Below are positions 3,465 through 29,582 of a stretch of DNA of 36,728 nucleotides, in pieces. Numbering within the stretch: the stretch's first letter is position 1; every line of letters starts with the position of its first letter. The DNA is taken from the NCBI GenBank assembly GCA_964505365.1, contig CAZDIF010000001.1, forward strand, positions 6,056-42,783, read 5' to 3'. A model generated the notes under the pieces. The model ran no database searches, was not told the DNA's origin, and saw only the letters and a program-made list of their open reading frames with translations. Made by a program: the position numbers and the translations under genes. The DNA comes from an uncultured Actinomycetota bacterium (GTDB taxonomy: Bacteria; Actinomycetota; Nitriliruptoria; Nitriliruptorales; Nitriliruptoraceae).

Positions 3465-3466
3465 CC

Positions 3467-5760: not shown

Positions 5761-5824
5761 TCGGCCAGACACCTCCGATCGGTGCGACAGGCCGCGCCGC
5801 GGCGGCTTGGTGAAGGAGGCTGCG

Positions 5825-9452: not shown

Positions 9453-10504
9453 CGACATCCGTAGAGACAGCCGACGTGGCCAGGACGCTGGCAGGTCGCG
9501 CCCTGTTCGTCGTGTGGGGTCCCCCGAGCTACGGCCCGCGCAGCCGGGCCTTCGCGCGTGAGCTGGAGATCGACGTCCATTTCGTGACGTCGTTCAGCCG
9601 ACGCGGGCTGGTCACCGCGCCACTGCGCTATGCCATCCAGGCCGTCCGGACGCTGTGGCTGCTGCAACGTCACCGGCCGGATGTGGTCTTCGTCCAGAGT
9701 CCGCCCAGCCTCGCGGTGCTGTGTGTCCACCTCTACGCGGTCGTGTCGGGTGCCGCCTATGTGGTCGACGCGCACAGCGGGGCGTTCGACCTGCCCTACT
9801 GGCGACGTCCACGGTGGCTCCACCGCCGGCTCCTCGGGCATGCCGTGACGACCGTGGTCACCAACGGGCACATGGCCGACGTCGTCCACGACGACGGGGG
9901 CCGATCCATGGTTGTTCGGGACGTCCCGACCGGGTTTCCAATCGGGGCACGGCCGGCCCTACCAGACGCGTTCAACGTCGCCGTGGTCAGCAGCTTCGCC
10001 CCGGACGAGCCCCTCGAGGCCATCGTGTCGGCCGCCGCCGACACGCCCGATGTCGTGTACCACGTCACCGGTCCGAACCACCGGGCACCGGGTCGCGTGC
10101 CGTCCCCCTTGCCGCCCAACGTCCACCTCACGGGCTTCCTACCCGACGAGGACTACTACGGCCTGTTGTCGTCAGTCGATGCCGTGATGTGCCTGACCAC
10201 CCGCGACCACACGATGCAACGGGGTGCCTGCGAGGCGCTCTCACTGGGAACGCCGCTCATCACCTCTCAGTGGGACGTCCTGACGGAGTACTTCGAACTG
10301 GGCACCGTCCACGTGGACGCGACAACGGAGGACATCCTCCGCGGCATCCGAGAGATGAGAACGGAACACGCGCGGCACCGCAAGGGCATGCAGGAACTTC
10401 GTGACCAGCGGCAGGAGGAGTGGCGGCGGGCCCGTGACGGGCTGGTGGAGCAACTGTCCCCGCTCATCGCGTCGAGGGCAGCAGTCGCCACACAGGAGGG
10501 GTGA
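9449..10504 (+). CDS. GT-B fold glycosyltransferase (divergent, family uncertain)
   Basis: The real start is GTG 9449 (GTGA overlap with the upstream stop). Two Rossmann-like halves are visible: ALFVVWGPPSYGPRS at the N-terminus and VHLTGFLPDEDYYGLLSSVDAVMCLT...GACEALSLGTPLITS at the C-terminus. The upstream 115 codons of ORF 9104..10504 are out-of-frame overlap. Confidence 0.6.
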   Translation: MTTSVETADVARTLAGRALFVVWGPPSYGPRSRAFARELEIDVHFVTSFSRRGLVTAPLRYAIQAVRTLWLLQRHRPDVVFVQSPPSLAVLCVHLYAVVSGAAYVVDAHSGAFDLPYWRRPRWLHRRLLGHAVTTVVTNGHMADVVHDDGGRSMVVRDVPTGFPIGARPALPDAFNVAVVSSFAPDEPLEAIVSAAADTPDVVYHVTGPNHRAPGRVPSPLPPNVHLTGFLPDEDYYGLLSSVDAVMCLTTRDHTMQRGACEALSLGTPLITSQWDVLTEYFELGTVHVDATTEDILRGIREMRTEHARHRKGMQELRDQRQEEWRRARDGLVEQLSPLIASRAAVATQEG

Positions 10505-10509
10505 GTCCA

Positions 10510-11808
10510 ATGTCCAGGATCAGCGTGTTCGGCCTCGGCTATGTGGGCGCTGTGACGGCCGCCGTGCTCGCCGAAGACGGGCACACCGTCATCGGCGTCG
10601 ACGCGAACCCCAGCAAGGTCGCGGCCGTCGCCGGCGGTCGAGCCCCGGTGGTGGAACTCGGACTCGACGACCTGATCCTGCGCGGTGTGCGCTCTGGGCA
10701 GCTTCGAGCGACGGCCGACGTCGATGAGGCCGTGTCGGGCTCCGACATCTCCATGATCTGTGTCGGTACGCCGAGTCTCGAGAGTGGGGGTCTCGACCTG
10801 TCGCAGGTCGAGAAGGTCTGTGGCGAGATCGGCCACCGTCTCCGTGACAAGGCCGCACCGCACACCGTCGTCGTCCGGAGCACCCTCCTGCCAGGAAGTA
10901 CCGACCAGGTCGTCATCCCAGCGCTCGAGGGTACGTCTGGCCGCATCGTCGGCCAGGGCGTGCTCGTCGGTGTGAACCCCGAATTTCTCCGCGAAGGTTC
11001 GTCACTGAAGGACTTCTACGATCCGCCGTTCACGATCGTCGGGGCGGACGACGACCAGACGGCGCGGTCCATCGCGGAACTGTACGAGGGGGCGCCGTCG
11101 CCGCCCCTCGTGGTCCCGGTCCGTGTCGCGGAGATGCTCAAGTACGCCTGCAACGCCTTCCACGCCCTCAAGATTGTGTTCGCCAACGAGATCGACAGCA
11201 TCTGCCTGCGGCAGGGAATCGACAGCACCCAGATGATGGAGATCTTCTGCCGCGACACCAAGCTGAACGTCTCCCCCCGGTACCTGCGGCCCGGCTTCGC
11301 CTTCGGGGGCTCATGCCTTCCGAAGGACCTGCGGGCGCTCGTGCACCATGCGCGCCACCTGGACGTGGACACCCCGGTCCTGGGCGCCATCCTGCGCAGC
11401 AACCGGGACCACGTCTCCCGTGCGCTCCAGGAGGTCATGGCCACCGGCGAACGACGGATCGGACTGGTCGGCCTCAGTTTCAAGCCCGGTACGGACGACC
11501 TGCGCGAGAGTCCCCTCGTGGAACTGGCCGAGCGACTCATCGGCAAGGGCTACGACCTCCGGGTTCACGACCCCCACGTCGCCGTGGCAAACCTGGTGGG
11601 CGCGAACCGGCGCTACATCGAACGGGAGATCCCCCACATCGCCACACTCATGGTCGACACCCCCGCCGAACTCCTCCGCGACTCGGAGGTCATCGTGCTC
11701 GGCCACGACTCGCCGGACGCGAGAGCGGTGACCCGCCAGCTCTCGGCGCACCATCGGGTCATCGACCTGGTCCGCAGCGGTGCACACGCACAGGTCCCGG
11801 TGGGGTGA
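10510..11808 (+). CDS. Nucleotide-sugar 6-dehydrogenase, GDP-mannose 6-dehydrogenase (AlgD)-like
   Basis: Motifs ISVFGLGYVG, NPEFLREGSSLKDFYDPPFTIVG and the catalytic Cys motif PGFAFGGSCLPKD. These match my recollection of AlgD better than Ugd (GGxCFxKD). AGGAGG at 10493..10498. The start is ATG 10510 or GTG 10501. Confidence 0.8.
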   Translation: MSRISVFGLGYVGAVTAAVLAEDGHTVIGVDANPSKVAAVAGGRAPVVELGLDDLILRGVRSGQLRATADVDEAVSGSDISMICVGTPSLESGGLDLSQVEKVCGEIGHRLRDKAAPHTVVVRSTLLPGSTDQVVIPALEGTSGRIVGQGVLVGVNPEFLREGSSLKDFYDPPFTIVGADDDQTARSIAELYEGAPSPPLVVPVRVAEMLKYACNAFHALKIVFANEIDSICLRQGIDSTQMMEIFCRDTKLNVSPRYLRPGFAFGGSCLPKDLRALVHHARHLDVDTPVLGAILRSNRDHVSRALQEVMATGERRIGLVGLSFKPGTDDLRESPLVELAERLIGKGYDLRVHDPHVAVANLVGANRRYIEREIPHIATLMVDTPAELLRDSEVIVLGHDSPDARAVTRQLSAHHRVIDLVRSGAHAQVPVG

Positions 11809-11815
11809 GAACCGA

Positions 11816-12841
11816 TCAGACCCGCGCTCCGCTGGGAAGTCGCCGGTACATCTCGTAACCCGCCCGGGCCAGTCGCAGGCGAACCGGCGCATGGGTCCGC
11901 GTGTGCCGCCCGTAGCACACCAGGTCGCCGCCGAACTTCGCCTTGAAGTCCCGGACTCCGTACGCCTCGTCTGGGCGGCCCGCCCCACCGAAGTCGTACA
12001 CCCGGTAGCCCTCTTCCGATGCACGACGCAGGACATCCCACATCAACAACTCGTTCGGAGTGGACCTCGAGTACTGGCGGTCGACTCCCCCATACCACCC
12101 GTACACGGTGTCGCCATGGGCGAGTTCGGCCGACGCGGCGACGATGGTCTCACCGATCCGCGCCAGCACGAAGCGCACCATGCCCCGGGGCACGAGCACC
12201 TCATGGGCAGCACGGAACAGGGACGCGTCGGCCAACGGCACGCGAGCGTTGCGGTACGTCTCCTCCAGGATCCGGTACCACGCGGTGAGGTCCTCCCGGC
12301 TGACGGCATCCTCGACAAGCACCTCACCCTGTCGCAGGCCCCTGCGGATTTGCTTCCGCGTGCTCCGGCTGATCGAGGCGAGCAGGTCGTCCGCCGGCCG
12401 GTCGAGGTCGATGAGGTAGTTCAGGTGATCCTCGTACGTGTAGCCGTTCGCCTCCAGGACGTCTCCGACTGGGCCGGCGTCCACGATGTGGCGCAACTCG
12501 GTCAGCAGCACGGCATGGTGCACGCTCGCCTCGTGGGTCCGCAGGAGCCGGTCCACGGCGTTGATCCCGTCGGGCCCCGGCACGTGGAGGATGCCACCGT
12601 AGACAATCGAACGGGTCGCGACCCGACGCGCGACATCGGGCCCGACGGCCACCTCGACCGGGACCAGCAGGGCGAGGACCTCCCCCGCGCGCCTCGCCGC
12701 GAGGAGTGATGGTCGGTGCCCTCGAGCCCGGCGGAACGTCTCGAACATCTCTGGGGTCTGGAAGACGTTTCCCCCCGGCGTCGCCGCCACGAACTCCCGC
12801 CACTGGCCGTCAGGCAGCCTCCGAACCACCTCGATGGTCAT
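11816..12841 (-). CDS. FemAB-family / Acetyltransf_6 (GNAT-fold) aminoacyl- or acyl-transferase
   Basis: 341 aa. The C-terminal block GYRVYDFGGAGRPDEAYGVRDFKAKFGG is typical of FemX/FemAB-like transferases found in EPS loci. The start forms an ATGA overlap with the ATP-grasp stop. Confidence 0.7.
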   Translation of the reverse strand: MTIEVVRRLPDGQWREFVAATPGGNVFQTPEMFETFRRARGHRPSLLAARRAGEVLALLVPVEVAVGPDVARRVATRSIVYGGILHVPGPDGINAVDRLLRTHEASVHHAVLLTELRHIVDAGPVGDVLEANGYTYEDHLNYLIDLDRPADDLLASISRSTRKQIRRGLRQGEVLVEDAVSREDLTAWYRILEETYRNARVPLADASLFRAAHEVLVPRGMVRFVLARIGETIVAASAELAHGDTVYGWYGGVDRQYSRSTPNELLMWDVLRRASEEGYRVYDFGGAGRPDEAYGVRDFKAKFGGDLVCYGRHTRTHAPVRLRLARAGYEMYRRLPSGARV

Positions 12842-14097
12842 TCGGGATCACCCCGGGTGACCACGGCTGCGGCCGTTTCGTAGTCCCGTGCGTGCCGTTC
12901 CCTGGCCGACAGCAACAGGCGCCCCGCACGGAGGAGATCACCCACGAAGGGACCCGGGTCGGACCATGAGAACAGGGCGTGGGCCTTGTGTCCTCGGAGG
13001 GACCGCCGCCACTCGCCCAGCGACAGATCGCCCCTCCGCCACATGGTCACGGCTGACTGCAGGTCGTGACGCAGGTGGATCCACTTGACCGTCCCGTACT
13101 GCTGTTCCAGGTTGGGGGGCAGCGGCAGGTCGTTGGCGTCGCAGTACATCGCGTACAGCAGATCGACCCCGCCGGCCTCGGCGATCGATGACCGTCCCGT
13201 GGGGCGGCCCACGTTCGGCTCGATGATCACGTACTCGCCGGTGATCGCATGCTGCTTGACCTCGACGTACCCGAGCCCGCGGTAGGCAAGACTGCCCCAC
13301 AACCGCGTCGCGATGTCGAGCACCTCGTCGTTGCGGCACTCCTGTCCCAGGCTGCTCTCGCCGGTGTCGACCGGCCACTGTCGCAGCTTGCGTGCCACGA
13401 AGGTGCCGACCGGACGATGGTCGTCCCCAACGTGGGCATTGACCGAGTAGAGGTTGCTGATCGGACCCGGTATCCACTCCTGGGCGATCAGGACGTCCGC
13501 CAGGGACGCGAGCCGCGCGTACGCGGCGAGAAGCGCCTCGGGGTCAGGGACGATGTAGGCCTTCAATCGACTCTGACGCTCCCACTCGGGCGTCGCCGAC
13601 AGCGGTGGCTTCAGCACGCAGGGAAAGGTCAGCTCCCGCGTGGCCCGTTCCGCATCCGACGGTTCCGACAGGTAGACCGAGCGCGGAACGCGGAAGCCGT
13701 GCTGCATCGCCCATGGATAGAAGCACGCCTTGTCCATCAGCATCTCGACCACGTCAGGATCAGGCAGTCGGATCCGATACCACGGCTCGAGCACGGATCG
13801 ATGACGGGAGATCGTGCGCACATGGGCGTCGGTCACGGGGACCAGAACGCCGGGGAGAGCAAGCGTGGAACCCAGATCCTGCAGTGCGGCGACCACAGCA
13901 TCCTCGCCCTCGGACGCGACGACGATCTGTTCGCACAGCCGTGTTCGACATCCAAAGTGTCCGGGGTCCTGCACCAGTCCCACCACCGGCACACCCCGGC
14001 CAGCGAGCACACGGGCGGCCTGAATGCCGTTGATGTGGTCGAGCCCGACGATGACTGCGCGGGGGTTCGTCGGATCGGCCCGGCTTCGTCGTCTCAT
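12838..14097 (-). CDS. ATP-grasp family carboxylate-amine ligase
   Basis: 419 aa. A pre-ATP-grasp Rossmann-like N-terminus (AVIVGLDHINGIQAARVL) is followed by FPCVLKP, LIAQEWIPG and YVEVK...YVIIEPNVGRP (ATP-grasp Mg/ATP motifs). ATGA overlap with the upstream stop. Confidence 0.75.
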   Translation of the reverse strand: MRRRSRADPTNPRAVIVGLDHINGIQAARVLAGRGVPVVGLVQDPGHFGCRTRLCEQIVVASEGEDAVVAALQDLGSTLALPGVLVPVTDAHVRTISRHRSVLEPWYRIRLPDPDVVEMLMDKACFYPWAMQHGFRVPRSVYLSEPSDAERATRELTFPCVLKPPLSATPEWERQSRLKAYIVPDPEALLAAYARLASLADVLIAQEWIPGPISNLYSVNAHVGDDHRPVGTFVARKLRQWPVDTGESSLGQECRNDEVLDIATRLWGSLAYRGLGYVEVKQHAITGEYVIIEPNVGRPTGRSSIAEAGGVDLLYAMYCDANDLPLPPNLEQQYGTVKWIHLRHDLQSAVTMWRRGDLSLGEWRRSLRGHKAHALFSWSDPGPFVGDLLRAGRLLLSARERHARDYETAAAVVTRGDPE

Positions 14098-14876
14098 GGT
14101 CGCACCCCGTGCCCCGAACTCGGAACCACGGAGGGCGAGGTGTCCAGAAGCGCCTGGATGACCGACTGGACCGTGACGACGACCTCCGCCAACGGACGCG
14201 TCGCATCCACGCGCACGAACTCACGACGACCCGCCCCCCAGTCCTGGATCACACGGCGCCAACGTTCGAGGCGGCGCGCCGTGGCGTCCCCCTTGCGTCC
14301 CGCGGCGACCTCGCCCGGGGTGTCGAGATGGATCACCAGGTCGGGAGGTGGTACGAGTCGCTGCACGAGTCGACGTTCGAGGCGGTCCAGGGCGTGGACC
14401 TCCGAACGTCCCGGGTCGGCCAGGGCGATCGTGGCCTCGAGCGGGATGTAGCGGTCGTACACCACCACGACACCTTGGCGTCGATCGCTGGCCGCGCCGC
14501 GGCCACGCCACCAGGCCTCGAGCACCCGGTTGGCCATGGCCACCATGGAGCGAGTTCGCGAGTACTTCGAACGCTTCGGTCGGCGGGGTTCCGAGGGCGC
14601 AGCCGTACGTGGCTGCAGGGTTGAGGCCCTGTCCGCCCGGCGTCGGAGCGCGCGCGCTGCCGCCGAGGAGGGCAGGAGCGCATTGCTGGAGCCCAGGCTC
14701 TGCCCCATGTAGAGGTACCGGGACGGCCACGGCCCTGTCGCGGCCAGCTGCTGGGCAACCGTGGTCTTCCCCGATCCGTCGATCCCGACCAGCGCGACGA
14801 TGGCCCCGCCGTCGCGGGCGCCCCTCCTCCGGAGGTGTCCTTCACGTCTTGCGACAGAAGAAGATGTTCTCGTCAT
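14094..14876 (-). CDS. dTMP-kinase-like P-loop kinase (unknown substrate)
   Basis: P-loop VALVGIDGSGKTT, DRY(I/F) motif VVVVYDRYIPLE and lid-like PPDLVIHLDTPGEVAAGRKGD. It is a paralogue of the C-terminal half of 27539..29110. ATG 14876 overlaps the methyltransferase 3' end by 35 nt. Confidence 0.65.
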   Translation of the reverse strand: MTRTSSSVARREGHLRRRGARDGGAIVALVGIDGSGKTTVAQQLAATGPWPSRYLYMGQSLGSSNALLPSSAAARALRRRADRASTLQPRTAAPSEPRRPKRSKYSRTRSMVAMANRVLEAWWRGRGAASDRRQGVVVVYDRYIPLEATIALADPGRSEVHALDRLERRLVQRLVPPPDLVIHLDTPGEVAAGRKGDATARRLERWRRVIQDWGAGRREFVRVDATRPLAEVVVTVQSVIQALLDTSPSVVPSSGHGVRP

Positions 14877-15597
14877 CGCGTAGCCCGTATCGGTTCAGTG
14901 TGTGGGCGTCGATGTCCGCCGCCAGGTCGACGTCAACCTCGAAGCCCACGGATTCCAGTCGATCGATCACGTCGTGCCCGTACACGCGGACGTGTGCACG
15001 CTCGCCGAAGGCGCGCTTGCGCTCCCGGGGGTCGGTGATCGTCGAGTCCTCGTACGTCGACTCGTCCATCCGCGTCGGGACCGTCACCAGCGCCCATCCC
15101 CCCGGTGCGAGCACGCGATGCAGCTCCGCCATCGCCGCCAGGTCGTCCTCGATCTCCTCGAGCACGTGGACACAGATCGCCGCGTCGAACCGTTCGGACG
15201 GCAATGGGGTGGCCGTGAGATCCCCCACGACGTCGACGTGCGGTCCCGGGACCAGGTCGAGGCCCACGTGCTCGATGTTCGGCATGCGGGCAAAGCGACG
15301 AGCGAATCCGTACTTGGGGGACACGTGGAACAGGCGTGTCGGCGCCGTGAACAGGTCCGTGTGCTCCTGCAGGTACAACCAGATGCGCCGGTGTCTCGCC
15401 TTCACGTTGCATCTCGGGCAGTAGCCGTCAGCACGTGGCTTCAGGGACGTGCCACCCCTGGTGAACGTGCGGACGTGCCATCCACAGCAGGGGCACACAT
15501 GCCCGCGGCCGACGAACAGCGTGGCCCGAGCGGCCAGCACGGCGTCGATGGCCCCGAGGAGCGCCGGGGGTGGCGAGGCGAGCAGCGTCGACGACAA
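14842..15597 (-). CDS. Class I SAM-dependent methyltransferase with an N-terminal Cys4 zinc ribbon
   Basis: CPCCG..17 aa..CPRC is followed by a Methyltransf_11-like core (VGLDLVPGP, FDAAICVHVLEEIEDD, LAPGGWALV). The listed start is TTG 15597, 3 nt after the PepM stop. GTG 15540 is an alternative. Confidence 0.75.
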   Translation of the reverse strand: MSSTLLASPPPALLGAIDAVLAARATLFVGRGHVCPCCGWHVRTFTRGGTSLKPRADGYCPRCNVKARHRRIWLYLQEHTDLFTAPTRLFHVSPKYGFARRFARMPNIEHVGLDLVPGPHVDVVGDLTATPLPSERFDAAICVHVLEEIEDDLAAMAELHRVLAPGGWALVTVPTRMDESTYEDSTITDPRERKRAFGERAHVRVYGHDVIDRLESVGFEVDVDLAADIDAHTLNRYGLRDDENIFFCRKT

Positions 15598-15600
15598 GGC

Positions 15601-16491
15601 CTATCCGCCGACCACGGCGGAGGACGGCAGGTACCTGGCCTCCGCCTCCGCAAGTTCGGCGGCCCCCTGCAACCGGAAGACCTCCTGCACGCTCACGATC
15701 CGGTCCTCGACGGTTCCAACACTGTGCTCACGGAACACCTGGGCCGCCGTCTGTTGCATCGCCACGATGCAGGCACGCATCAGGTGGTTGGCCCAGATGA
15801 TCATGCTCACACCTGCCTCCTCCAGCACGGACGTGGGGGTGCGGCTGTAAGTGGTCGGTACCACCACCACCGGGCAGTCGCGGTCCCAGCGATCCATGAA
15901 CGAGAGCACCTCCTCCGCGGTGGACTGCTTGCTGTGCACCAGGACGGCGTCCGCGCCCGCATCGCGGTAGGCCGCCGCACGGCACAGCGCATCTTCGAGA
16001 CCGCGTCCCGCGATGAACGCCTCGGTGCGGGCAACCACGCAGAAATCCGGATCGACCTGGGTGTCCTTCGCTGCGGTGAGCTTGCCGCAGAACTCGCGAA
16101 TGTCCGCGAGGGGTTGCTTCTCGCCAGCGATGAACGAGTTGGTCTTCGGAAACAGCTTGTCCTCGATGCACATCGCGGCGACGCCGCGCTGCTCCAGCTT
16201 GTGCACCAGGCGCCGGACGTTGTTGAAGTTGCCGTACCCGGTATCGGCGTCGACCAGGATGGGGATCGAGGTCGCGTCACTCATGAACTCGAGCACCTCG
16301 AGCACCTGGGTCCAGCTCGCCTCGTTGTTGTCGCGGACGCCCATCGCGGCCGAGATGCACAATCCGCTCGCCCAGATGCCGGCGAAGCCCGCCTCCTCCA
16401 CGATGCGGGCGCTCACTCCATCGTGGGCTTCCATCAGGAACGTTCCCCCGGGGGCCTCGAGCGCCTGCCGGAATGTCGTCGTCTTCCTCAC
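15601..16491 (-). CDS. pepM: Phosphoenolpyruvate phosphomutase
   Basis: The full PepM catalytic signature is present: [50 protein letters not shown] (the diagnostic EDKx5NS motif), [10 protein letters not shown] and AVLVHSK. Confidence 0.92.
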
Positions 16492-16498
16492 GGCTGTG

Positions 16499-17485
16499 TC
16501 ACCCTCCCGCGCCGTTCACCGACGCCGTCATTGCGTCCGCGCACACGCGGACACTCCCCTGGTCGTCCCCGCGTTCGTACGCGTCGATGCAGGCCACGAC
16601 GCGCCGGCCGATGTCCGCCTGTGCGTCACTGGCCATGGCACCGATGTGGGGCGTGAGCAGCACGTTCGGCAGGTCTGCCAGGGGCGAGTGCTGGCCCTCC
16701 CCTTCCTTCTCATGGACGTCGAGGGCGGCGCCCGCCAGGCGCCCCTCGACGAGGGCCTCGCGTAGCGCTGACTCGTCGACCACTCCCCCGCGGGCGAGGT
16801 TCAGCAGGTACGCGTCGGGCTTCATCAGGCCGATGAGATCCGCGTCGACCAGGTCACGGGTTGCCGCGGTCAGCGGGACGTGGACCGTGACGTAGTCACC
16901 CAAGGCCATGACGTCCTCGATCGGAACGATCTCAGCTCCCCGGCACCGCAGGCGCGTGGCGACCATCTCACCGGGTCGGTCCACACATCCGACGACGCGC
17001 ATGCCCCAGGCCATGCCGAGCTCAGCCACGTAGCCACCGATGTTGCCCATGCCCACGATGCCCAGCACCTTCTCCCTGATCAGGCGCCCCTCGAGCTCGT
17101 GTTTGAGCCAGCGCCCCTGGCGCATCGACAGGTCAGCCTCACGCAGGTGTCTGCTCAACGCCAACATGAGGGCGAAGGTCAGTTCTGCGACCGCTCTGGC
17201 CCCGGGCTCCGGAATCGGTACCAGCGTGACGCCACGGCGTACGCATGCATCGACGTCCACGTTGTCGAGACCGGAGCCGGCACGCACCAGCAGCCCGAGA
17301 CGCGGCGCAGCCTCGAGGACCTCGGCGTCGACGGTTACCCCGCTCCGGAAGACGAGTACGTCCTGATCCCGGGCAGCCTGGCGGAGATCCCTGACTCCGA
17401 GATCGAAGGCACACGTGACCTCGTGCCGATGGGACAGGACCTGGATGGCATGCTCGTCGATCCGACTGACAACCAGGATCCTCAT
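16499..17485 (-). CDS. NAD-dependent D-isomer-specific 2-hydroxyacid dehydrogenase (PGDH-like); candidate phosphonopyruvate reductase
   Basis: NAD-binding site [13 protein letters not shown] and the catalytic R/E/H triad context ([28 protein letters not shown]). The family call is solid. The substrate is inferred from the 7-nt spacing to pepM. Confidence 0.85.
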
Positions 17486-18882
17486 CGCTTCTCACCCCTG
17501 CCCACGGGTCGCCTCTTCGGCCTCGCCCGACCGGGTGTCGTCGGCGTACCGTGCGTCGGCACACCGGAAACCCCGGCCTCATCGTTGCGCTCACGGTCAC
17601 CCGGGGCTTCCCCCGGATGAACTACGTCGTCTACGGCCTTTGAACGAGCCCGAGCGGAACCGGGCGCGCCCGCAGCGGCAGCACATCGCTCGACCAGCGC
17701 CACGTAGCCGGCGGCGACGTCCTCCCACGGATGGCGACCCGTGAACACCTCCGCGCCACGCGCGAGCGCACGACGACGATCGCCGTCGTCGTGAAGTGCT
17801 CGGATACATCGGGCAAGGTCGGCCGCGTCACCTGGCCTGAAGAGCTCGACCATCGTGTCAGCGAAGTAGCGTTCGATCGCCGTCGTGCGCGCCGCCACGC
17901 ACGGGATCCCGACAGCGGCGTACTCCATCAGCTTCGTGGGCAGCAGGCCATCCGTGAAGGGGTCGTCCCGGTAGGGAACGACCCCGAGATCTGCCGCCGC
18001 AATCAGGTCGGGCAGGCGCTCCGCCAGAACCATCTCGTCTCGGAGCTGCACGCGATCCGCGAGACCGAGTTCGTCGCGGAGCTCACGCAGCTGCGGCATC
18101 GCATCACCCCGACCGAGGATCGTCAGGTGCAGGTCGGGCAGTTCGTCCTTCAACATCTCCACCGCGTGGATGGCAAGGTCGAGGCCATACCGGTGTGTCA
18201 CCGTGCCGTGGTAGAGCACGTGGAACTCTGGGCCGGTTGGCGGACCCGATCGCCGCGGGAACAGCGCCTCGTCGGCCACGTTGAGCACCACGCTGCACCG
18301 GTCGGCCGGCACACCACGAGCCATCAGCGTCTCACGCCAGTGGTGGCTGACCGTGATGACATGATCAGCGAACCTGCAGGCCATGCGCTCCTGCCAGCGC
18401 ACGAGGCGTGCAACCCAGGACCGCCGACTCGGGAAGCGGCCAGCGAAGAACTCCGGCATGAGGTCGTGGAGGTCGAGGATGACGGGAACCCCGCGAAGCT
18501 TGGGCACCAGGGCACTGAGGACCAGGAAGTCCGGCAGGTTGTGCACCTGCACCGTGCGGTACGGCGTCCGCCGGTGACGCAGGGCGAGGCGCAGGCCCGC
18601 TCGTCCGCAGAACCTCACGTAGCTGAGCAGTTGGCGGGGAAGGCTGCGCTTGTCGAGCGTCATCGGGATGCGGTGGACACGAACCCCCCGATACGTCTCC
18701 GTCGGGGGTTCACCGGGCTTGCGCAGGCAGAGGACGTCCACGTCCCAGCCGGCGGACACCAACGCCTCCGCCTCGCGTTGCACCCGGGTCTCGCCTCGCG
18801 GGTAGTAGGCGTGCACGATCATCGCGTGCCGTGGTGGGGCCGGTGTGCCGGCAGCGCTGGGACGGGTGTTCATGGTGGTCAT
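17482..18882 (-). CDS. GT4-family glycosyltransferase
   Basis: The start is ATG 18882 (MTTMNTRPS), overlapping the upstream TGA by 1 nt. Motifs MIVHAYYPRGETRVQREAEAL and the C-terminal PTKLMEYAAVGIPCVAARTTAIERYF (EX7E region). There is a P/G/R-rich tail of about 60 aa. The upstream 160 codons of ORF 17482..19365 are rejected. Confidence 0.85.
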   Translation of the reverse strand: MTTMNTRPSAAGTPAPPRHAMIVHAYYPRGETRVQREAEALVSAGWDVDVLCLRKPGEPPTETYRGVRVHRIPMTLDKRSLPRQLLSYVRFCGRAGLRLALRHRRTPYRTVQVHNLPDFLVLSALVPKLRGVPVILDLHDLMPEFFAGRFPSRRSWVARLVRWQERMACRFADHVITVSHHWRETLMARGVPADRCSVVLNVADEALFPRRSGPPTGPEFHVLYHGTVTHRYGLDLAIHAVEMLKDELPDLHLTILGRGDAMPQLRELRDELGLADRVQLRDEMVLAERLPDLIAAADLGVVPYRDDPFTDGLLPTKLMEYAAVGIPCVAARTTAIERYFADTMVELFRPGDAADLARCIRALHDDGDRRRALARGAEVFTGRHPWEDVAAGYVALVERCAAAAGAPGSARARSKAVDDVVHPGEAPGDRERNDEAGVSGVPTHGTPTTPGRARPKRRPVGRGEKR

Positions 18883-20189
18883 CAACGGCCCACCACCCGC
18901 CAGGCGAAGTCGCCGAGGGTCAGCGCGTCGACGTCGCCGGTCACCGCGACGGCGCTCCGCGCCCCATCGGGCCAGCGGCCCAGCCGTACCAGCGGCGTGT
19001 CCGGCAACTCGAGCGCGTCCACCATCGCGCGTGCGCCGTCGCGTGCGAGCTCGCGCGACACGAAGCGTGTGTGCGTGGTCGGACTCGTGGTGGTCTCGAC
19101 GACATAGCCCTGGTCGCGCAGCAGGTCCGCCGTTCCTGCCGGGCACGCCGGGTGGACCCCGACGAACGGGCGCCTCCCGTCGACGGGGACCGTGAGCTCG
19201 CGCGCCCGTGTGCGCACGTACCCGTCCTCCCAAGGCCCGGCCCCGCCCCCGGTGCCCCCCCGGACCAGGACGGTGACCTCCGGTGGGCCCGTGACGCGGA
19301 CGCGGAGCCGGTTGACACCGTCCTCGACGATCTCCACGTGCGTCCGACCCCGGGCAGTCCACCATCGGGCAATCTCATCGAGCCGAGCGATCCAGACCCG
19401 CATCCCGGGGGCCCGCGCGGCGGCCAGCACCATGTCGATGCCGGCGGTACATGCCTCGACGCGTTCCGGGTGCAGCGACACGGTGAACAGTTCCCCGGCC
19501 GCGTGGGCAGCCCGGAAGGCGTCGGCCCAGACCCGGGCGATCTCGTCCGGCGAGGCCAGTGGCAGGCGTTCCACCAGGGACTCGTCGTCGGGCAGGCTGT
19601 AGGGAATGCGCAACAGCCCGTCCTCGGCCCAGGGAACCGACAGGCGGTCCGCGGAAGAGACCGCGCCGTAGAACTCCAGGCCCCGCCGATAGGCGTTCGT
19701 GACCAGGTGCTCGGCGACCGGCCAGTGCACGCCCCGGCTTGCGTCGTAGCGGAACCCGGTCGCGCGCACGGCACGCATCGTGCGGTCGTCGCAGCGCAGG
19801 TAGGGGGCGCGGAACCCGGTGACCGGGATCCCGACGGCCTCCAGCACCTGTCGTGCCCTGGCCAACTGCTCGTGCTGCTCGGCCTCGTCGAGACCGAGGT
19901 GGTCGACGTGATAGAGGCCGTGCACGGCGAACTCGATCCCGCGGGCGGCGTACGCCTCGAGGGCTCGCGGGTGCCGTTCGACTGCGGATGCGGTGATCGG
20001 GAGGGTCGCCGAACAGCCGTGGTGTTCGAGGATGGCCAGCAGGTGGGCGAGCCGACGGTCCATGCGAGCCGGCGAGACCCCGTATCGGGCGGTGATGGTC
20101 CAGGCACGCCGCGCCAGCCGCCGGGTGCCCTTGCCCTGGGCCGCCACGGCAAGGGACCGCACGTTCGGCCGCGGTGGGGCCTGGGTCAT
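18882..20189 (-). CDS. Polysaccharide deacetylase (CE4/NodB-homology) family protein with a C-terminal extension
   Basis: The start is ATG 20189 (ATGA overlap with the APS-kinase-like stop). NodB motif 2 (VHGLYH) and motif 3 (FRAPYL) are present, plus IPYSLPDDES. A canonical TFDD motif 1 is not obvious. Confidence 0.7.
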   Translation of the reverse strand: MTQAPPRPNVRSLAVAAQGKGTRRLARRAWTITARYGVSPARMDRRLAHLLAILEHHGCSATLPITASAVERHPRALEAYAARGIEFAVHGLYHVDHLGLDEAEQHEQLARARQVLEAVGIPVTGFRAPYLRCDDRTMRAVRATGFRYDASRGVHWPVAEHLVTNAYRRGLEFYGAVSSADRLSVPWAEDGLLRIPYSLPDDESLVERLPLASPDEIARVWADAFRAAHAAGELFTVSLHPERVEACTAGIDMVLAAARAPGMRVWIARLDEIARWWTARGRTHVEIVEDGVNRLRVRVTGPPEVTVLVRGGTGGGAGPWEDGYVRTRARELTVPVDGRRPFVGVHPACPAGTADLLRDQGYVVETTTSPTTHTRFVSRELARDGARAMVDALELPDTPLVRLGRWPDGARSAVAVTGDVDALTLGDFAWRVVGR

Positions 20190-20836
20190 GTCGGCCCCCC
20201 GGTGGTGGTGGACACCCGTGCGGAGCCGGAACCCTGCGCCTCCCCTGGGACGAGGAATTCCCGGTCCTGCAGTAGCCGATGCAGCACTCGCGCCGCGTCT
20301 CCGGGCGCCATGTGCGTCGAGTCCACGCGCAGGTCGGGAGCAACGGGTTCCTCGAAGGACACGGCCTCGCCGGGTCGCAGCCGGCCCACGAGGTGGCGGA
20401 GGCGGCGGCGGACCCGCTTGCGCAGCGCGGGGCGGCTGGGCCGTGCCGCCCGCCGGGCCTCGCACACCGCGGCCGGCGCGTCGACGAACACTTCCACGAA
20501 GGACTCCGGACCGACCATCTCCCGGGCGGCGTCTCGAGCACTGCGGCGAGCGCTGACCGTGACGCACACCACGATCCCCCCGTGCCGGACGACCTCGCGG
20601 GCCACGAACGCCTTGCGCAGCAGCTTCTCCTCGCTCGTGCGCTCGCCGCGAGCCTTGCGCAGGGCCGGTACGACGTCCAGCACGCTGACCGTGCGACCGT
20701 CGGCCTCGAGCAGTGGAACCAGGGCGTGGGCCACGGTCGACTTCCCGGCGCCGCTGCGCCCGGTGAACCAGACGCAGACCCCGCGACCTCCGGACGCGTG
20801 CTGCTGGGGCAGGCGCCCTGCAGGCAGGTCGGTCAT
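20186..20836 (-). CDS. Adenylylsulfate (APS) kinase-like P-loop protein, divergent
   Basis: VCVWFTGRSGAGKSTVA and FVEVFVDAPAAVCEARRA align with my recollection of CysC (WFTGLSGSGKST, FIEVFVDTPLAICEARD). The LDGDNxR and FISP motifs are replaced (LDVVPALR, TVSA). Confidence 0.7.
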   Translation of the reverse strand: MTDLPAGRLPQQHASGGRGVCVWFTGRSGAGKSTVAHALVPLLEADGRTVSVLDVVPALRKARGERTSEEKLLRKAFVAREVVRHGGIVVCVTVSARRSARDAAREMVGPESFVEVFVDAPAAVCEARRAARPSRPALRKRVRRRLRHLVGRLRPGEAVSFEEPVAPDLRVDSTHMAPGDAARVLHRLLQDREFLVPGEAQGSGSARVSTTTGGPT

Positions 20837-21930
20837 GGCAGCACCTCTCGCACGGCGGTCACGACGCGGTCCAGGTCACCGGTCGTGAGGCCGGGGTGGA
20901 TCGGCAGGGAGAGGACCTCGCGGGAGACGCGTCGGGTCACGGGGGTCGGCGTGGGGCCCACCCGCGCGTCGTCGCGGAAGCACGGGTAGTCGTGCACGGG
21001 GCGCGGGTAGAAGATGGCGCATCCGACCCCGCGGGCGCGCAGGTGCGCGGCGAGCTCGTCGCGAGACACGGCCGCCGTCGCGCCCACGCGGACGGTGAAC
21101 TGGTGGAAGGCGTGGTGACGGCCGTCCGACGGCTCACGGGGAAGGTGGAGCCCCTCGATCCCCGACAGTCCCTCCGCCAGCACCGCGGCGTTGGCCCGTC
21201 GAGCCTCCAGGATCTCCGGCAGGCGCGTCATCTGGGCAACGCCGAGGGCCGCCTGCAGGTCGGTCATCCGCAGGTTGAGGCCGGGCCGGGCGTAGTCGTA
21301 GCGCCCACGCTGGCCCTGGTTGCGAAGCCAGCGCACCGCCTCGGCCACCTCCTCGTCGTCGGTCGTGACGATCCCCCCCTCGCCCGTGGTGAGGTTCTTG
21401 GTCGCGTAGAAGGAGAAGCAGGCCGTGCCGCTCGCCCCGACCGGACCGTCGGCGTGACCGGCGCCGAGCGCCTGGGCGGCGTCCTCGATGACCGTGACCG
21501 GATGGCTGCCGACCATCCTGCGGATGGCTGGCATGTCCGCCGGAAGGCCGTACAGGTGCACGGGCACGACGGCACGGGTCGCCTCGGTGATCGCCTCGTC
21601 GAGTCTTTCGGGGTCGATGGCGAAGTCGTCCCCGATGTCGGCGAAGCGCGGCGTGGCGCCCACGAACAGGATGGTGTTCAGGGTCGCCACAAACGTGAAC
21701 GGCGACGTGACGACCTCGTCTCCCGGGCCGATCCCGTGCGCGAGCAGCGCGGCCAGCAGGGCGCTGGTGCCGTTGTTGACGGCGACCGCGTGTGGTGCAC
21801 CAACGGTCTCGGCGACCGCCCGCTCGAAGCGCTCGACCATCGGCCCCTGGGTGAGCTGCCCGGACCGGAGGACCTCCAGGACCAGCTTCTCCTCGAGGTC
21901 GCCGAGGATCGGTTCTCCGACGGCGATCAC
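20833..21930 (-). CDS. DegT/DnrJ/EryC1/StrS-family PLP-dependent sugar aminotransferase (WbpE-like)
   Basis: The start is GTG 21930 (GTGA overlap). Motifs NGTSALLAAL and the PLP-Lys block ACFSFYATKNLTTGEGG. The upstream ~145 codons of ORF 20833..22368 overlap the acetyltransferase out of frame. Confidence 0.88.
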   Translation of the reverse strand: MIAVGEPILGDLEEKLVLEVLRSGQLTQGPMVERFERAVAETVGAPHAVAVNNGTSALLAALLAHGIGPGDEVVTSPFTFVATLNTILFVGATPRFADIGDDFAIDPERLDEAITEATRAVVPVHLYGLPADMPAIRRMVGSHPVTVIEDAAQALGAGHADGPVGASGTACFSFYATKNLTTGEGGIVTTDDEEVAEAVRWLRNQGQRGRYDYARPGLNLRMTDLQAALGVAQMTRLPEILEARRANAAVLAEGLSGIEGLHLPREPSDGRHHAFHQFTVRVGATAAVSRDELAAHLRARGVGCAIFYPRPVHDYPCFRDDARVGPTPTPVTRRVSREVLSLPIHPGLTTGDLDRVVTAVREVLP

Positions 21931-22502
21931 GCGGCCACCCCCGCGGTGTCCCGACCACAGTGCCCGCACCGGTCCACCAGGTCTTCGCCCAACCGCGCCA
22001 GTGGCCGCCCGCACCGGCAGACCCAGCCTCGCAGACGCGCCGGCGCACCCAGCACGAGCCCGTGCCGGGGCACGTCCGCGGTGACCACCGCTCCCGCGCC
22101 CACCATGGCGTATTCCCCGACCTCGACCCCGCACACGATGGTCGCGTTGGCCCCGATGCTGGCGCCACGACACACGCGGGTCGGCACCACCTCCCAGTCC
22201 TGCGAGGCCGCCCGCGGGAACCGGTCGTTGGTGAAGGTCACGTGGGGGCCCACGAACACCTCGTCCTCGAGGGTCACCCCCTGGTACACCGAGACGTGGT
22301 TCTGGATCTTGCACCGGTCGCCGACCACGGCGCCAGCGTCGACGAAGACGGCGAAGCCCAGCGTGCAATGGGCGCCGATCCGGCTGCCCGCGCGAACGTG
22401 GCCCCGGTGCCAGATGCTCGTGCCGGCCCCCACCTCAGCGCCCTCCTCGACGATGGCGGTGGGATGGGCCCGTACGGCAAGCGCGGCGGTGTCAGCGGCC
22501 AT
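21927..22502 (-). CDS. Left-handed beta-helix (hexapeptide) sugar N-acetyltransferase (WbpD/WlbB-like)
   Basis: The start is ATG 22502 (MAADTAALAVRAHPTAIVEEGAEVGAGTSIW). Hexapeptide repeats run throughout. The C-terminus has a Cys-rich WVCRCG...RCGHCG. 191 aa. Confidence 0.82.
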   Translation of the reverse strand: MAADTAALAVRAHPTAIVEEGAEVGAGTSIWHRGHVRAGSRIGAHCTLGFAVFVDAGAVVGDRCKIQNHVSVYQGVTLEDEVFVGPHVTFTNDRFPRAASQDWEVVPTRVCRGASIGANATIVCGVEVGEYAMVGAGAVVTADVPRHGLVLGAPARLRGWVCRCGRPLARLGEDLVDRCGHCGRDTAGVAA

Positions 22503-23583
22503 CGGTGACCTCCGTGGGGGGGCGAAGTCGTTCCGCGGGCACCCGGGTCCCGGGTCGCCGACGCGCCCGATGCGCGACCACCAGCCACGCGAGCATGCGC
22601 GCGCCCTGGACCGGGAGGTCGTGGGCCAGCAGGGCCAGCCAGTCGCGGAGGGACATCGGCATCCGGGCGCGCGCGTAGCCGAGGGCCCGGAGGTGACGCC
22701 CGGCAACGATCTCGATGAAGGCGATCTCGGACGGCTCGAGGACGCGACGGAACCGTCCCACGGCCCGGGTGGTGATGGCGCCCGCCTCGACGTCCCCGAA
22801 CGAGCTGTTGGCGCCTGCCACGCGGTGATCGGGGACCGCCCCCATCTGCAGCATGACCGAGACGAAATCCTCACCGATGAAGGCGCAGACCTCCCGCATC
22901 GTGCCCTCGGGATCGGTCACCAGGTCCTCGTACCGGACGACCAGGTACCGGTCCGGGTAGCGACGGCGGTTGCGTGCCGCCGCCCGGGCCGAGCGCAGCC
23001 ACCGTCCGGTCGCTGCCCCCACGCGGTCGAGATTGGCACCGCCGCGCCGGCGCACCGAGGCGTACCGGTCCCGGGGGTCGCGGACCATCTGGACGATCCG
23101 TGCATCGGGGAACGCCTCCAGGATCTGGTCCGCGTAGTGCTCGCTGTGCAGCGACTTGTCACCCCACCGTGGCCGGCCGACCCGCTCGGCGTGGTGGCGG
23201 TGGAGCAAGGAGAACAGGCGTCCGTAGGTCGCCGGTCCCTGGCGGAACTCCCGCTGCAGTCGGTCGCGATCCGGGTGCAGGTGGTCGATGCGGCGGTACC
23301 CGAGCAGGTCGTCGAGGCAGCGCTCGAGGTTCTCGGGGTCCCCGAGGTCGCCGTACCGGCCGTCGAACCAGCGGAACAGGTTGGTCCGCCGGACCATCGA
23401 GATCCGCGGGTGCGAGGCCAGCAGCGCAAACATCAGGGTTGTCCCGCTGCGATCGGCGCCGGTCACGAAGATGGGGCCTCCGTGCCGATCGGACGTCTCG
23501 CGTGCCGGAACGGGTCGTTGGCGCCCGGTGGTGGCCGGGACGACGCCCGGTCCCGCGGCCGCCAGGTGTCGCTCAGACGTCAT
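22492..23583 (-). CDS. Sulfotransferase 2 (Sulfotransfer_3-like)
   Basis: PIFVTGADRSGTTLM (5'-PSB loop), RPRWGDKS, ARIVQMVRDPRDRYAS (3'-PB), VRYEDLVTDP and VCAFIGEDF. Confidence 0.85.
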   Translation of the reverse strand: MTSERHLAAAGPGVVPATTGRQRPVPARETSDRHGGPIFVTGADRSGTTLMFALLASHPRISMVRRTNLFRWFDGRYGDLGDPENLERCLDDLLGYRRIDHLHPDRDRLQREFRQGPATYGRLFSLLHRHHAERVGRPRWGDKSLHSEHYADQILEAFPDARIVQMVRDPRDRYASVRRRGGANLDRVGAATGRWLRSARAAARNRRRYPDRYLVVRYEDLVTDPEGTMREVCAFIGEDFVSVMLQMGAVPDHRVAGANSSFGDVEAGAITTRAVGRFRRVLEPSEIAFIEIVAGRHLRALGYARARMPMSLRDWLALLAHDLPVQGARMLAWLVVAHRARRRPGTRVPAERLRPPTEVTDGR

Positions 23584-29110: not shown

Positions 29111-29582
29111 TCCCGACCTCCGACCGGATGCCGGCTTCCTCGCGAGCCGGCACGCGCCCCTCGCCTCACGTCCACTCCTCGCACCGGTTCGCCGCCCCAG
29201 GGACGCGGTGCTCCCTACACGCTACGAACGGCGTAGCGGCTCCGCAGCACGTGGCGTCGTACTCCCACGTACGACGAATGCATGAGTCGATCCAGCGTGC
29301 GGCTCTCCAGACGTCGTGCGTCACGAGGCTCACGCACGTACAGACGGCGTACGCCAGCTACGAACCGCGGGCCTACGACGCCACGCCGCGGCCCGTACCG
29401 TGGGACTGTCGTCAGCCTGGGGCAGCCGGGTGACGCGGACCGAAAGGCGCGGGGCGGATGCAGTCGCAGGCAGCCGGCGCGTGATCCGACCGGTCCCCCA
29501 CGTCCCGCGCGCAGCTCGGATCGTTCGGGCTGCGGCATCCTCCCTCCGCCGGCCTGACCTCGATCACCGCACCGTCGATCGC
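29111..29582. promoter_or_regulatory. About 470 bp divergent intergenic/leader region between the 17-gene minus operon and the APH-like kinase gene
   Basis: No convincing coding frame; third-position G/C bias is poor until about 29380. The region contains several TCGTAG-type hexamers on the minus strand and the inverted repeat cGCTACG-aacgg-CGTAGCg at 29220..29238. Confidence 0.5.
29217..29229 (-). promoter_or_regulatory. Conserved 13-nt leader motif GTTCGTAGCGTGT (ops-like), copy 1
   Basis: The plus-strand sequence ACACGCTACGAAC is identical to 34975..34987. It lies 106 nt upstream of GTG 29110. The partner box TTCGTCGTA (29278..29270) lies 53 nt further upstream. Confidence 0.45.

Follow-up and report, generated by a model that had tools for sequence, protein, structure and literature searches.

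In the 36,728-nucleotide stretch of uncultured actinomycetotal DNA analyzed here (the window), two adjacent minus-strand genes, coding for a phosphoenolpyruvate (PEP) mutase, PepM, and for a D-2-hydroxyacid dehydrogenase (2HADH), probably represent the phosphonate-forming core of a glycan-tailoring cassette, whereby, judging from the encoded proteins, phosphonolactate would be made and then ligated to a sugar polymer. Together with an ATP-grasp ligase and a thymidylate-kinase-fold (Tmk-like) kinase, the two genes form a cassette that is present in about 60 species genomes from at least 10 phyla, mostly in glycan loci. These two conserved partners were overlooked by the sequence-only reading from which the present analysis departed, and which had been concerned with the mutase and the dehydrogenase. 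The four genes are the following.

15601..16491, minus strand: PEP phosphomutase (PepM); PF13714 at 1e-65, TIGR02320, 1M1B, EDKx5NS.
16499..17485, minus strand: short 2HADH, similar to phosphoglycerate dehydrogenase (PGDH); PF02826 at 2e-51, PF00389 at 6e-22.
12838..14097, minus strand: ATP-grasp carboxylate-amine ligase (COG3919, "D-aspartate ligase"-like); NCBIfam PRK12767 at 1e-8.
14094..14876, minus strand: thymidylate-kinase-fold P-loop kinase (Tmk-like); PF02223 at 9e-8.

On the evidence of its sequence, the gene at 15601-16491 on the minus strand is a bona fide PEP mutase. It starts with a GTG at 16491 and codes for 296 amino acids, which score 383.9 bits against TIGR02320 (PEP_mutase) and thereby pass the equivalog cut-off of 319.55. 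The EDKx5NS motif is present as [13 protein letters not shown], and the PEP mutase of Mytilus (1M1B) matches the protein with E = 1.3e-120 (phmmer). In the Mytilus numbering, which is the query position plus 4, the two proteins are identical at S46/G47/L48, D58, D85, D87, E114, K120, N122, S123, R159 and H190, such that the strong call made earlier from the motif and the catalytic blocks is upheld. The earlier reading had also considered that the homologue might turn out to be a phosphonopyruvate hydrolase or an enzyme of the isocitrate-lyase type. The sister models all remain below their cut-offs: phosphonopyruvate hydrolase was rejected at 249 versus 374, methylisocitrate lyase, of the isocitrate-lyase type, at 148 versus 354, and carboxy-PEP (CPEP) mutase at 94 versus 420.

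The dehydrogenase gene, with an ATG start at 17485, codes for 328 amino acids. Between its TGA and the GTG of PepM lie 7 nt (CACAGCC), and a Shine-Dalgarno-like GGGAGGG run lies just ahead of PepM, inside the end of the dehydrogenase gene. The description of this protein as a PGDH-like, NAD-dependent dehydrogenase with an R/E/H triad, encoded 7 nt upstream of the mutase, agrees with its PF02826 and PF00389 domains, with the spacer, and with the intact triad R232/E261/H280, which is invariant over all aligned sequences. Among proteins of solved structure, it comes closest to phosphoglycerate dehydrogenases (1WWK at 5e-56, SerA of Mycobacterium tuberculosis and human PHGDH); the protein is under every NCBIfam equivalog cut-off and has no regulatory domain. 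Its assignment as an ordinary SerA was rejected on several grounds, namely the lack of an ACT/ASB domain, a score below the TIGR01327 cut-off, the adjoining PepM gene and the wrong position in the tree.

In a neighbor-joining tree (numpy distances, 314 columns, 100 bootstraps), built from sequences chosen by pattern scan, the window dehydrogenase falls within a cassette clade of 65 sequences (bootstrap 98). The PepM-linked dehydrogenases of actinomycetes form a clade of their own (bootstrap 100), and the two clades are sisters, with a joint bootstrap of 99. Outside both are SerA of M. tuberculosis, the PGDH of Pyrococcus horikoshii, human PHGDH, and archaeal and Nitrospirae homologues without PepM. 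The references in this tree are the three PGDHs and the PepM-less homologues, the authentic VlpB, PdxB, GhrA/B and PtxD sequences not being among them. Of the phylogenetic placement proposed earlier, the tree thus covers the separation from these PGDHs and the grouping with a clade that is vlp-like by gene content. Both PepM-linked clades have residues in common that are missing from the PGDHs, most clearly a loop signature, R47-S48-G49-V50 (R-S-G-V), where the PGDHs have R-S-A-T. Many homologues are 50-74% identical to the window dehydrogenase, and the next-best group, at 43-47%, is the actinomycete one. In one of its members, Streptomyces sp. NRRL S-455 (L073), PepM, a zinc alcohol dehydrogenase, a semialdehyde-dehydrogenase-like gene (Semialdhyde_dh) and a homologue of phosphoglycerate kinase (PGK) surround the dehydrogenase, an arrangement that we take, from the valinophos work and from the description in PMC8942020, to be the vlpABCDE-type core for dihydroxypropylphosphonate (DHPPA). 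No PepM is found near the homologues of less than about 42% identity, which come from Bathyarchaeia and Nitrospirae. The sister relationship to the vlp-type enzymes, together with the conserved adjacency to PepM, supports the dehydrogenase as a candidate NAD(P)H-dependent phosphonopyruvate reductase, which would give phosphonolactate. The role of VlpB itself reportedly rested at first on the same kind of evidence.

The extent to which the pair is conserved was surveyed with a profile of the dehydrogenase, run over one genome per species, which returned 80 loci. In 58 of the 62 loci whose dehydrogenase is at least 47% identical to that of the window, a PepM or PepM-like gene stands beside it. 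The carriers belong to the Chloroflexota, Ignavibacteria/Bacteroidota, Actinomycetota, Planctomycetota, Gemmatimonadota, Desulfuromonadota, Alpha- and Gammaproteobacteria, Spirochaetota and KSB1. All open reading frames (ORFs) within 8 kb of the dehydrogenase were clustered for 65 loci, and the neighbors comprise PepM (58 loci), the ATP-grasp protein of about 410 amino acids (47), the Tmk-like kinase (38), an HprK-related protein (32), a polysaccharide deacetylase (20), Wzx (19), a FemAB-like protein (14) and a GT4 glycosyltransferase (13). Where at least 6 kb is available on both flanks (37 loci), PepM is found in 34, the ATP-grasp ligase in 33, the Tmk-like kinase in 26 and glycan-assembly genes in 25. 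A reverse search of metagenomes, starting from the ATP-grasp protein, gave 17 well-flanked loci, of which 14 carry the 2HADH, 13 PepM and 12 the Tmk-like kinase.

Some variation within the cassette is also apparent. The HprK-related protein, of about 390 amino acids and with a faint HprK-related/P-loop signal (ORF cluster 8; e.g. L044:7792-8970), is missing from the window and from the soil-metagenome contig L001, which have the methyltransferase and the FemAB-like gene instead; its distribution suggests two cassette subtypes. In 22 cassette loci from Actinomycetota, Chloroflexia and Limnocylindrales (L017, L027, L032, L035, L037, L038, L042-L044, L046, L047, L049, L052, L053, L055, L058, L059, L061, L062, L064, L065 and L067), the PepM-like protein is only 36-40% identical to that of the window, and EDNxFPKRNSL replaces EDKx5NS. 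PEP mutase is still the best NCBIfam model for this variant, at 265 bits and below the cut-off, and the protein may be a divergent mutase or have a different activity in the same cassette. Two of the carriers are cultured: Candidatus Laterigemmans baculatus JC640 (L023) has a PepM of the EDK type, with a deacetylase and Wzx nearby, and Nocardioides caldifontis YIM 730233 (L065) has a PepM-like protein of the EDN type. The cassette is also present in complete genomes (CP070637.1, CP070829.1, OZ244213.1 and OZ245851.1).

The ATP-grasp protein, of about 410 amino acids, has no Pfam family and shows weak NCBIfam matches to carbamoyl-phosphate-synthase-like and LysX models. Its AlphaFold2 (AF2) model, with a pLDDT of 91.6, retrieves PurK, biotin carboxylase, L-amino-acid ligases, DdlB and PylC by Foldseek (1e-17 to 1e-15), and the E-x-N motif for Mg2+/ATP (E293-P294-N295) is invariant in 33 homologues. 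In the source records, members of the family are named "D-aspartate ligase" or "carboxylate--amine ligase". By its modeled fold, the product of 12838-14097 is thus an ATP-grasp ligase. The family is large, with 633 clusters at 50% identity (E <= 1e-30), and is rich in fusions: ATP-grasp::FemAB-like, ATP-grasp::polysaccharide deacetylase, GT2::ATP-grasp, ATP-grasp::GT1::Tmk-like and GT4::ATP-grasp::GT4. Fusions of the Tmk-like::ATP-grasp type, with the Tmk-like domain N-terminal, have a domain order that matches the gene order in the window.

The second partner, the Tmk-like protein, was rejected as a true dTMP kinase, with 28.4 bits against TIGR00041 and a cut-off of 83.25. Its AF2 model (pLDDT 80) finds thymidylate kinases as the best Foldseek matches, at 3e-8. 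The Walker A, DR and RKGE lid motifs are kept, and an insertion of about 60 residues follows the P-loop. The public call of this gene, P0243, appears truncated: it has 150 amino acids and covers 58% of the ORF at 100% identity. The full ORF of 260 amino acids, supported by homologues of 85-89% identity, extends 35 nt into the methyltransferase gene.

No enzyme dependent on thiamine diphosphate (ThDP), such as phosphonopyruvate decarboxylase (Ppd), was detected among the window genes by family search (no TPP_enzyme family). Searches by tblastn with a ThDP enzyme and scans for the GDG..NN motif were negative in the window and in the 65 related loci, and no ThDP-enzyme cluster was found among the ORFs within 8 kb of the dehydrogenase in those loci. 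Class-V aminotransferases (the family of 2-aminoethylphosphonate (AEP) transaminase), iron-dependent alcohol dehydrogenases (Fe-ADH) and NTP_transferase/nucleotidyltransferase proteins (PntC/LicC) are likewise absent from the gene families of the window, whose sole aminotransferase, DegT_DnrJ_EryC1, is paired with a hexapeptide acetyltransferase. The statement that the 36.7 kb hold no ThDP decarboxylase, AEP transaminase or cytidylyltransferase is consequently confirmed. Genes similar to PGK, aspartate-semialdehyde dehydrogenase (ASADH) and alcohol dehydrogenase (ADH) are found neither among the window families nor among the conserved neighbors of the cassette; on this absence of vlpC-E-type genes from the window and the cassette loci, DHPPA was rejected as the product.

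The genetic setting of the cassette is that of a polysaccharide locus. Genes in this high-GC DNA (65-74%) were chosen by third-position GC content and family searches, and those with assigned families tile 96% of the window, with a largest gap of at most 390 bp. The minus-strand operon contains, in its first part, a GT4 gene, three sulfotransferases, a hexapeptide acetyltransferase, a DegT aminotransferase, an adenosine 5'-phosphosulfate (APS) kinase and a polysaccharide deacetylase; these are followed by a second GT4 gene, the 2HADH, PepM, a zinc-ribbon methyltransferase dependent on S-adenosylmethionine (SAM), the Tmk-like kinase, the ATP-grasp ligase and a FemAB-like transferase. From the second GT4 gene (17482-18822) to the FemAB-like gene, neighboring genes overlap by 4 nt or, in one case, by 35 nt, or are at most 7 nt apart, and promoter and terminator scans of the window revealed no terminator on the minus strand within the operon. 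The converging plus-strand genes code for Bac_transf, a GFO/IDH/MocA oxidoreductase, a sulfotransferase, Wzy, two glycosyltransferases and a UDP-sugar dehydrogenase, and beyond these follow genes for a Wzx flippase and additional sulfotransferases. In all, the glycan genes of the window comprise Bac_transf, Wzy, Wzx, several GT4/GT1 genes, UDP-sugar dehydrogenase, polysaccharide deacetylase, APS kinase and seven sulfotransferases. The position of the pair between a GT4 gene and tailoring genes of a polysaccharide operon, as proposed earlier, is borne out by these gene families, and the glycan setting recurs in related loci; contig L001 is syntenic with the window across the whole polysaccharide locus, with proteins of 49-77% identity. 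The remaining genes that surround the cassette are listed below.

18885..20174, minus strand: polysaccharide deacetylase (Polysacc_deac_1); PF01522 at 3.7e-16; 52% identical to the L001 deacetylase.
17482..18822, minus strand: GT4 glycosyltransferase; Glyco_trans_4_4 at 3e-25, Glyco_trans_1_4 at 1e-20; 68% identical to the L001 GT4.
14842..15597, minus strand: SAM-dependent methyltransferase with an N-terminal C4 zinc ribbon (CPCC...CPRC); Methyltransf_11 at 2.6e-11.
11816..12841, minus strand: FemAB-like transferase of the GNAT fold; Acetyltransf_6 at 1e-25, FemAB at 9e-15; last gene of the operon.

The stop of this GT4 gene overlaps the dehydrogenase start by 4 nt, and its own start codon is uncertain, the ORF being open up to 19365. 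Of the 65 related loci, 20 have a member of the deacetylase family no more than 8 kb from the dehydrogenase, and the family is also found fused to the ATP-grasp family (P0266). The methyltransferase was rejected as a DhpI-like phosphonate O-methyltransferase: it shows no similarity to DhpI or to other characterized enzymes of this kind, and it is kept in loci without PepM. The FemAB-like protein matches TIGR03019 at 1.8e-22, under the cut-off, and its best matches in the Protein Data Bank (PDB) are FemX and an aminoacyl-tRNA-dependent peptide synthase, such that it probably uses aminoacyl-tRNA.

Other genes of the locus bear on the polymer rather than on the cassette. The seven Sulfotransfer_3 genes lie at 5072-6787(+), 22492-23583(-), 23573-24592(-), 24493-25452(-), 30545-31552(-), 31549-32277(-) and 32274-33260(-), and the APS kinase of the same locus is found at 20186-20836(-). 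From this concentration in one locus, a polymer with unusually heavy sulfation is predicted; an ATP sulfurylase is absent from the window genes. The UDP-sugar 6-dehydrogenase (10501-11808(+)), GFO/IDH/MocA oxidoreductase (3398-4684(+)), DegT aminotransferase (20833-21930(-)) and hexapeptide N-acetyltransferase (21951-22487(-)) together resemble the WbpA/B/E/D route to 2,3-diacetamido-2,3-dideoxy-uronic acid, a sugar that, if made, would offer N-acetyl groups to the deacetylase. The locus also holds two P-loop proteins (26695-27549(-) and 27539-29110(-)) and a kinase of the APH family (29316-30599(+)); an APH kinase of 51% identity and a neighboring P-loop protein are likewise found at the edge of L001.

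The following pathway may be proposed from these components. The equilibrium of PepM favors PEP by more than 500-fold (PMC12871164), and a 2-hydroxyacid dehydrogenase is an accepted way to drive it in the unfavorable direction (PMC12871164; PMC8942020). PepM would turn PEP into phosphonopyruvate, an activity that we infer from its family membership, and the dehydrogenase, encoded 7 nt upstream and translationally coupled, would reduce phosphonopyruvate with NAD(P)H to 2-hydroxy-3-phosphonopropanoate (phosphonolactate), as its phylogeny and conserved adjacency suggest. This reduction would pull the mutase forward with no decarboxylase, as VlpB does in valinophos biosynthesis. Since the PGK-, ASADH- and ADH-like genes are absent, the pathway is expected to end at phosphonolactate and not at DHPPA. 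The decoration had been proposed earlier to be of the phosphonolactate or the DHPPA type; the first alternative gains from the dehydrogenase tree and the cassette, and the second is given up. The route from PEP through phosphonopyruvate to phosphonolactate, and its predicted end there, may be put forward with fair confidence.

The subsequent steps are proposed with lower confidence. From its fold, fusions and co-occurrence, the ATP-grasp ligase may activate the carboxylate of phosphonolactate as an acyl phosphate; the PGK-like enzyme of the valinophos route presumably forms the same intermediate. The ligase would then attach phosphonolactate to a sugar amine, an amide being the most plausible linkage; this amine would be freed by the deacetylase, whose gene stands two genes upstream of the pair. 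The fusion of the ligase family to polysaccharide deacetylases, glycosyltransferases and the Tmk-like kinase suggests such an order of events, whereby de-N-acetylation is followed by ATP-dependent phosphonolactyl ligation. The polysaccharide so formed, heavily sulfated and assembled by Wzx/Wzy, would contain an N-phosphonolactyl amino sugar, and the attachment would take place without the CMP-activation (PntC) route of the known phosphonoglycans. More speculatively, the Tmk-like kinase, the zinc-ribbon methyltransferase and the FemAB-like transferase could further tailor or activate the substituent, and the kinase might phosphorylate the phosphonate, in the manner of nucleoside monophosphate kinases acting on phosphate monoesters, or another phosphate.

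Several points weigh against this explanation. Three metagenomic loci (L166-L168) share with the window Wzy, UDP-sugar dehydrogenase, GT4, methyltransferase, FemAB, deacetylase, DegT, hexapeptide acetyltransferase and Wzx, at 44-70% identity, and carry a Tmk-like::ATP-grasp fusion, with neither PepM nor the 2HADH within 19.5-22 kb; the ligase unit is thus kept in the absence of both. PepM is missing in 4 of the 17 well-flanked ATP-grasp loci, and L022, L063 and L098 have the 2HADH and the ATP-grasp ligase without it. As the ligase, kinase and methyltransferase are kept in PepM-less loci, the unit may not be dedicated to phosphonate. Moreover, the tree is a neighbor-joining one on pattern-scan sequences, and its sister clade is called vlp-type by gene content and not by the VlpB sequence of Streptomyces durhamensis; and a Ppd could sit elsewhere in the genome, the searches having covered the 65 loci and the window, whose source contig is about 6 kb longer. 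The PepM-less loci allow for three possible readings: PepM may be encoded elsewhere in those genomes; the ligase unit may take another acid, perhaps a phosphoglycerate-like one, with PepM and the dehydrogenase as an add-on that swaps in the phosphonate analogue; or the ligase unit may not be dedicated to phosphonate at all.

The gene content of these exceptional loci is of interest in its own right. In L166:7928-13010, L167:7585-12802 and L168:5443-10660, the GT4 gene is followed directly by the methyltransferase gene and the 2HADH-PepM pair is precisely absent, such that the pair constitutes a two-gene presence/absence polymorphism; three tandem FemAB-like genes are present as well. In L063 (6321-10915) and L022, both from Alphaproteobacteria, there is no PepM within 10 kb of the ATP-grasp/dehydrogenase pair, and in L063 the pair comes after genes for a luciferase-like monooxygenase and for a class-V aminotransferase, which might supply the 2-oxo acid instead. 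In L098 (9076-15978), a FemAB/dehydrogenase/ATP-grasp trio without PepM lies directly upstream of an adenylation-carrier-sulfotransferase protein and a polyketide synthase with ketosynthase, acyltransferase, acyl carrier protein and thioesterase domains (KS-AT-ACP-TE), the module resembling the sulfotransferase/thioesterase modules that form olefins.

The rival explanations differ in what the dehydrogenase and the ligase are thought to handle. The dehydrogenase could supply a non-phosphonate D-2-hydroxy acid (D-glycerate or a 3-phosphoglycerate-like acid) to the ATP-grasp ligase, with PepM feeding a Ppd/AEP pathway elsewhere in the genome. The exceptional loci speak for this, as L166-L168 keep the methyltransferase, the Tmk-like kinase, the ATP-grasp ligase and FemAB without PepM or the 2HADH, and L022, L063 and L098 the dehydrogenase and the ligase without PepM, the class-V aminotransferase of L063 being able to give the 2-oxo acid. 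We nevertheless consider such an arrangement quite improbable: 58 of 62 loci have PepM or a PepM-like gene directly beside the dehydrogenase, the clade of the latter joins the vlp-type enzymes rather than the PGDHs of the tree, Ppd is found in none of the 65 loci, and a PepM without an adjacent pulling enzyme would be unusual (PMC8942020). Far more remote is a catabolic pair, in which the dehydrogenase would oxidize phosphonolactate and PepM run toward PEP. The same equilibrium of more than 500-fold (PMC12871164) and the reversibility, in principle, of the dehydrogenase would allow it, yet there is no transporter or regulator, the genes lie inside a biosynthetic glycan operon, and the pair is co-conserved with ligase, kinase, glycosyltransferase and flippase genes.

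Another explanation retains phosphonolactate and changes its destination, such that the cassette would make a diffusible, phosphonopeptide-like conjugate, with the ATP-grasp and FemAB-like proteins as peptide or ester ligases merely embedded in a polysaccharide locus. ATP-grasp and tRNA-dependent GNAT/FemAB-like enzymes are indeed standard ligation tools for valinophos (VlpF), the phosphonoalamides, rhizocticin and dehydrophos (PMC11867202; PMC12723261), and both families flank PepM in the window. A small conjugate is nonetheless unlikely, given that translational coupling ties the genes to a GT4 gene of a Wzx/Wzy operon, that glycan loci from many phyla show this arrangement again, that the ATP-grasp family is fused to GT2, GT1/GT4 and polysaccharide deacetylase domains, and that the cassette has no exporter or self-resistance gene.

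The coupling of PepM to the dehydrogenase is less surprising than the sequence-only reading implied, the VlpB branch point having already been catalogued (PMC8942020; PMC12871164). In the 2022 inventory of Li and Horsman, 2-Hacid_dh_C is recognized as a branch point before Ppd, and VlpB- and FrbC-type neighborhoods together account for 5.3% of the neighborhoods from complete genomes (PMC8942020). The PepM-2HADH pair itself is therefore a known coupling. What was not found described is the distinct dehydrogenase clade, its fixed partnership with the COG3919 ATP-grasp ligase and the Tmk-like kinase, and the occurrence of this set in glycan loci of many phyla. The available part of the inventory text does not describe a 2HADH/PepM/ATP-grasp/Tmk-like cassette in glycan loci (PMC8942020), and neither phosphonolactate in glycans nor a PepM/ATP-grasp/thymidylate-kinase cassette was found in a search of full-text literature, in which subscription papers are mostly not included. 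Nor was the cassette found described in the paper on nucleotidyl activation or in the recent one on actinomycete mining; the valinophos paper ("...broadly conserved in nature"), which stood outside this comparison, may mention such neighborhoods.

A broader and more tentative proposition, which we judge somewhat more likely to fail than to hold, is that the cassette represents a widespread, undescribed class of phosphonoglycan, in which phosphonolactate made by PepM and a VlpB-related reductase is linked through its carboxylate to de-N-acetylated amino sugars by an ATP-grasp ligase with a Tmk-like kinase, thereby bypassing both the decarboxylase and the CMP activation that is believed to prevail in the decoration of cell surfaces with phosphonates. 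The interest of the locus would lie in such a widespread route to a new phosphonate-bearing polysaccharide, and not in a PepM without Ppd. If true, a new acidic C-P head group would join the known ones, attached by an equally new logic of acyl-phosphate/amide chemistry, and the VlpB branch point would extend from the small molecules of actinomycetes to the surface polymers of many, mostly uncultured, phyla of soils and sediments. Stable organophosphonate in these environments would then have a biological source that has so far gone uncounted, and surveys of pepM that sort clusters by Ppd, AEP transaminase (AEPT) or PntC would miss or misfile such loci. The two cultured carriers (L023 and L065) make the idea of a phosphonolactate glycan directly testable.

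Among the known systems, the closest is VlpA/VlpB of the valinophos/DHPPA pathway in S. durhamensis, in which, as in the window, a PGDH-homologous 2-Hacid_dh_C enzyme takes the place of Ppd beside PepM and phosphonolactate is the predicted product. The two systems differ in sequence, the window dehydrogenase being only 43-47% identical to the vlp-type enzymes and the window PepM 42-44% identical to vlp-type PepMs and much closer to AEP-type mutases such as that of Mytilus. They also differ in context. In the valinophos core, a PGK-like kinase, a semialdehyde/GAP-dehydrogenase-like reductase and an alcohol dehydrogenase are said to take phosphonolactate to DHPPA; the window has no PGK-, ASADH- or ADH-like genes, its pair is set in a Wzx/Wzy operon and not in a small-molecule cluster, and its partners are the COG3919 ATP-grasp ligase and the Tmk-like kinase. 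A thymidylate-kinase-like gene is also found in gene cluster family (GCF) 540 of the 2022 inventory, an unclassified family where Ppm is flanked by a thymidylate kinase and a PF14907 nucleotidyltransferase; in that inventory, which covers complete genomes only, GCF 540 is without the dehydrogenase, unlike the window.

With regard to the ligase, the D-aspartate ligase Aslfm of Enterococcus faecium shares the ATP-grasp fold and, with the reaction proposed here, the formation of an amide on a glycan via an acyl phosphate. The glucuronate amidoligase Cj1438 of Campylobacter jejuni is reportedly another of the ATP-grasp amidoligases that act on glycans or cell-wall precursors. The window ligase differs from these in having no close characterized relative (the best PDB profile match is DdlB, at 2.6e-6), in its predicted acyl donor, a phosphonate acid, and in its genetic and sometimes physical coupling to a Tmk-like kinase.

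Known phosphonates of bacterial surfaces have AEP or 2-hydroxyethylphosphonate (HEP) head groups, made via Ppd and attached as CMP-activated phosphonodiesters. This classical phosphonoglycan pathway (PepM-Ppd-AEPT or PhpC, with CMP activation by PntC/LicC) and the window have in common a PepM in a cell-surface glycan locus and, presumably, a phosphonate-decorated polysaccharide. Ppd, AEP transaminase, Fe-ADH and the nucleotidyltransferase have no counterpart in the window, where the head group would instead be a carboxylated hydroxy-phosphonate, linked through its carboxylate by an ATP-grasp ligase rather than as a CMP-derived phosphonodiester.

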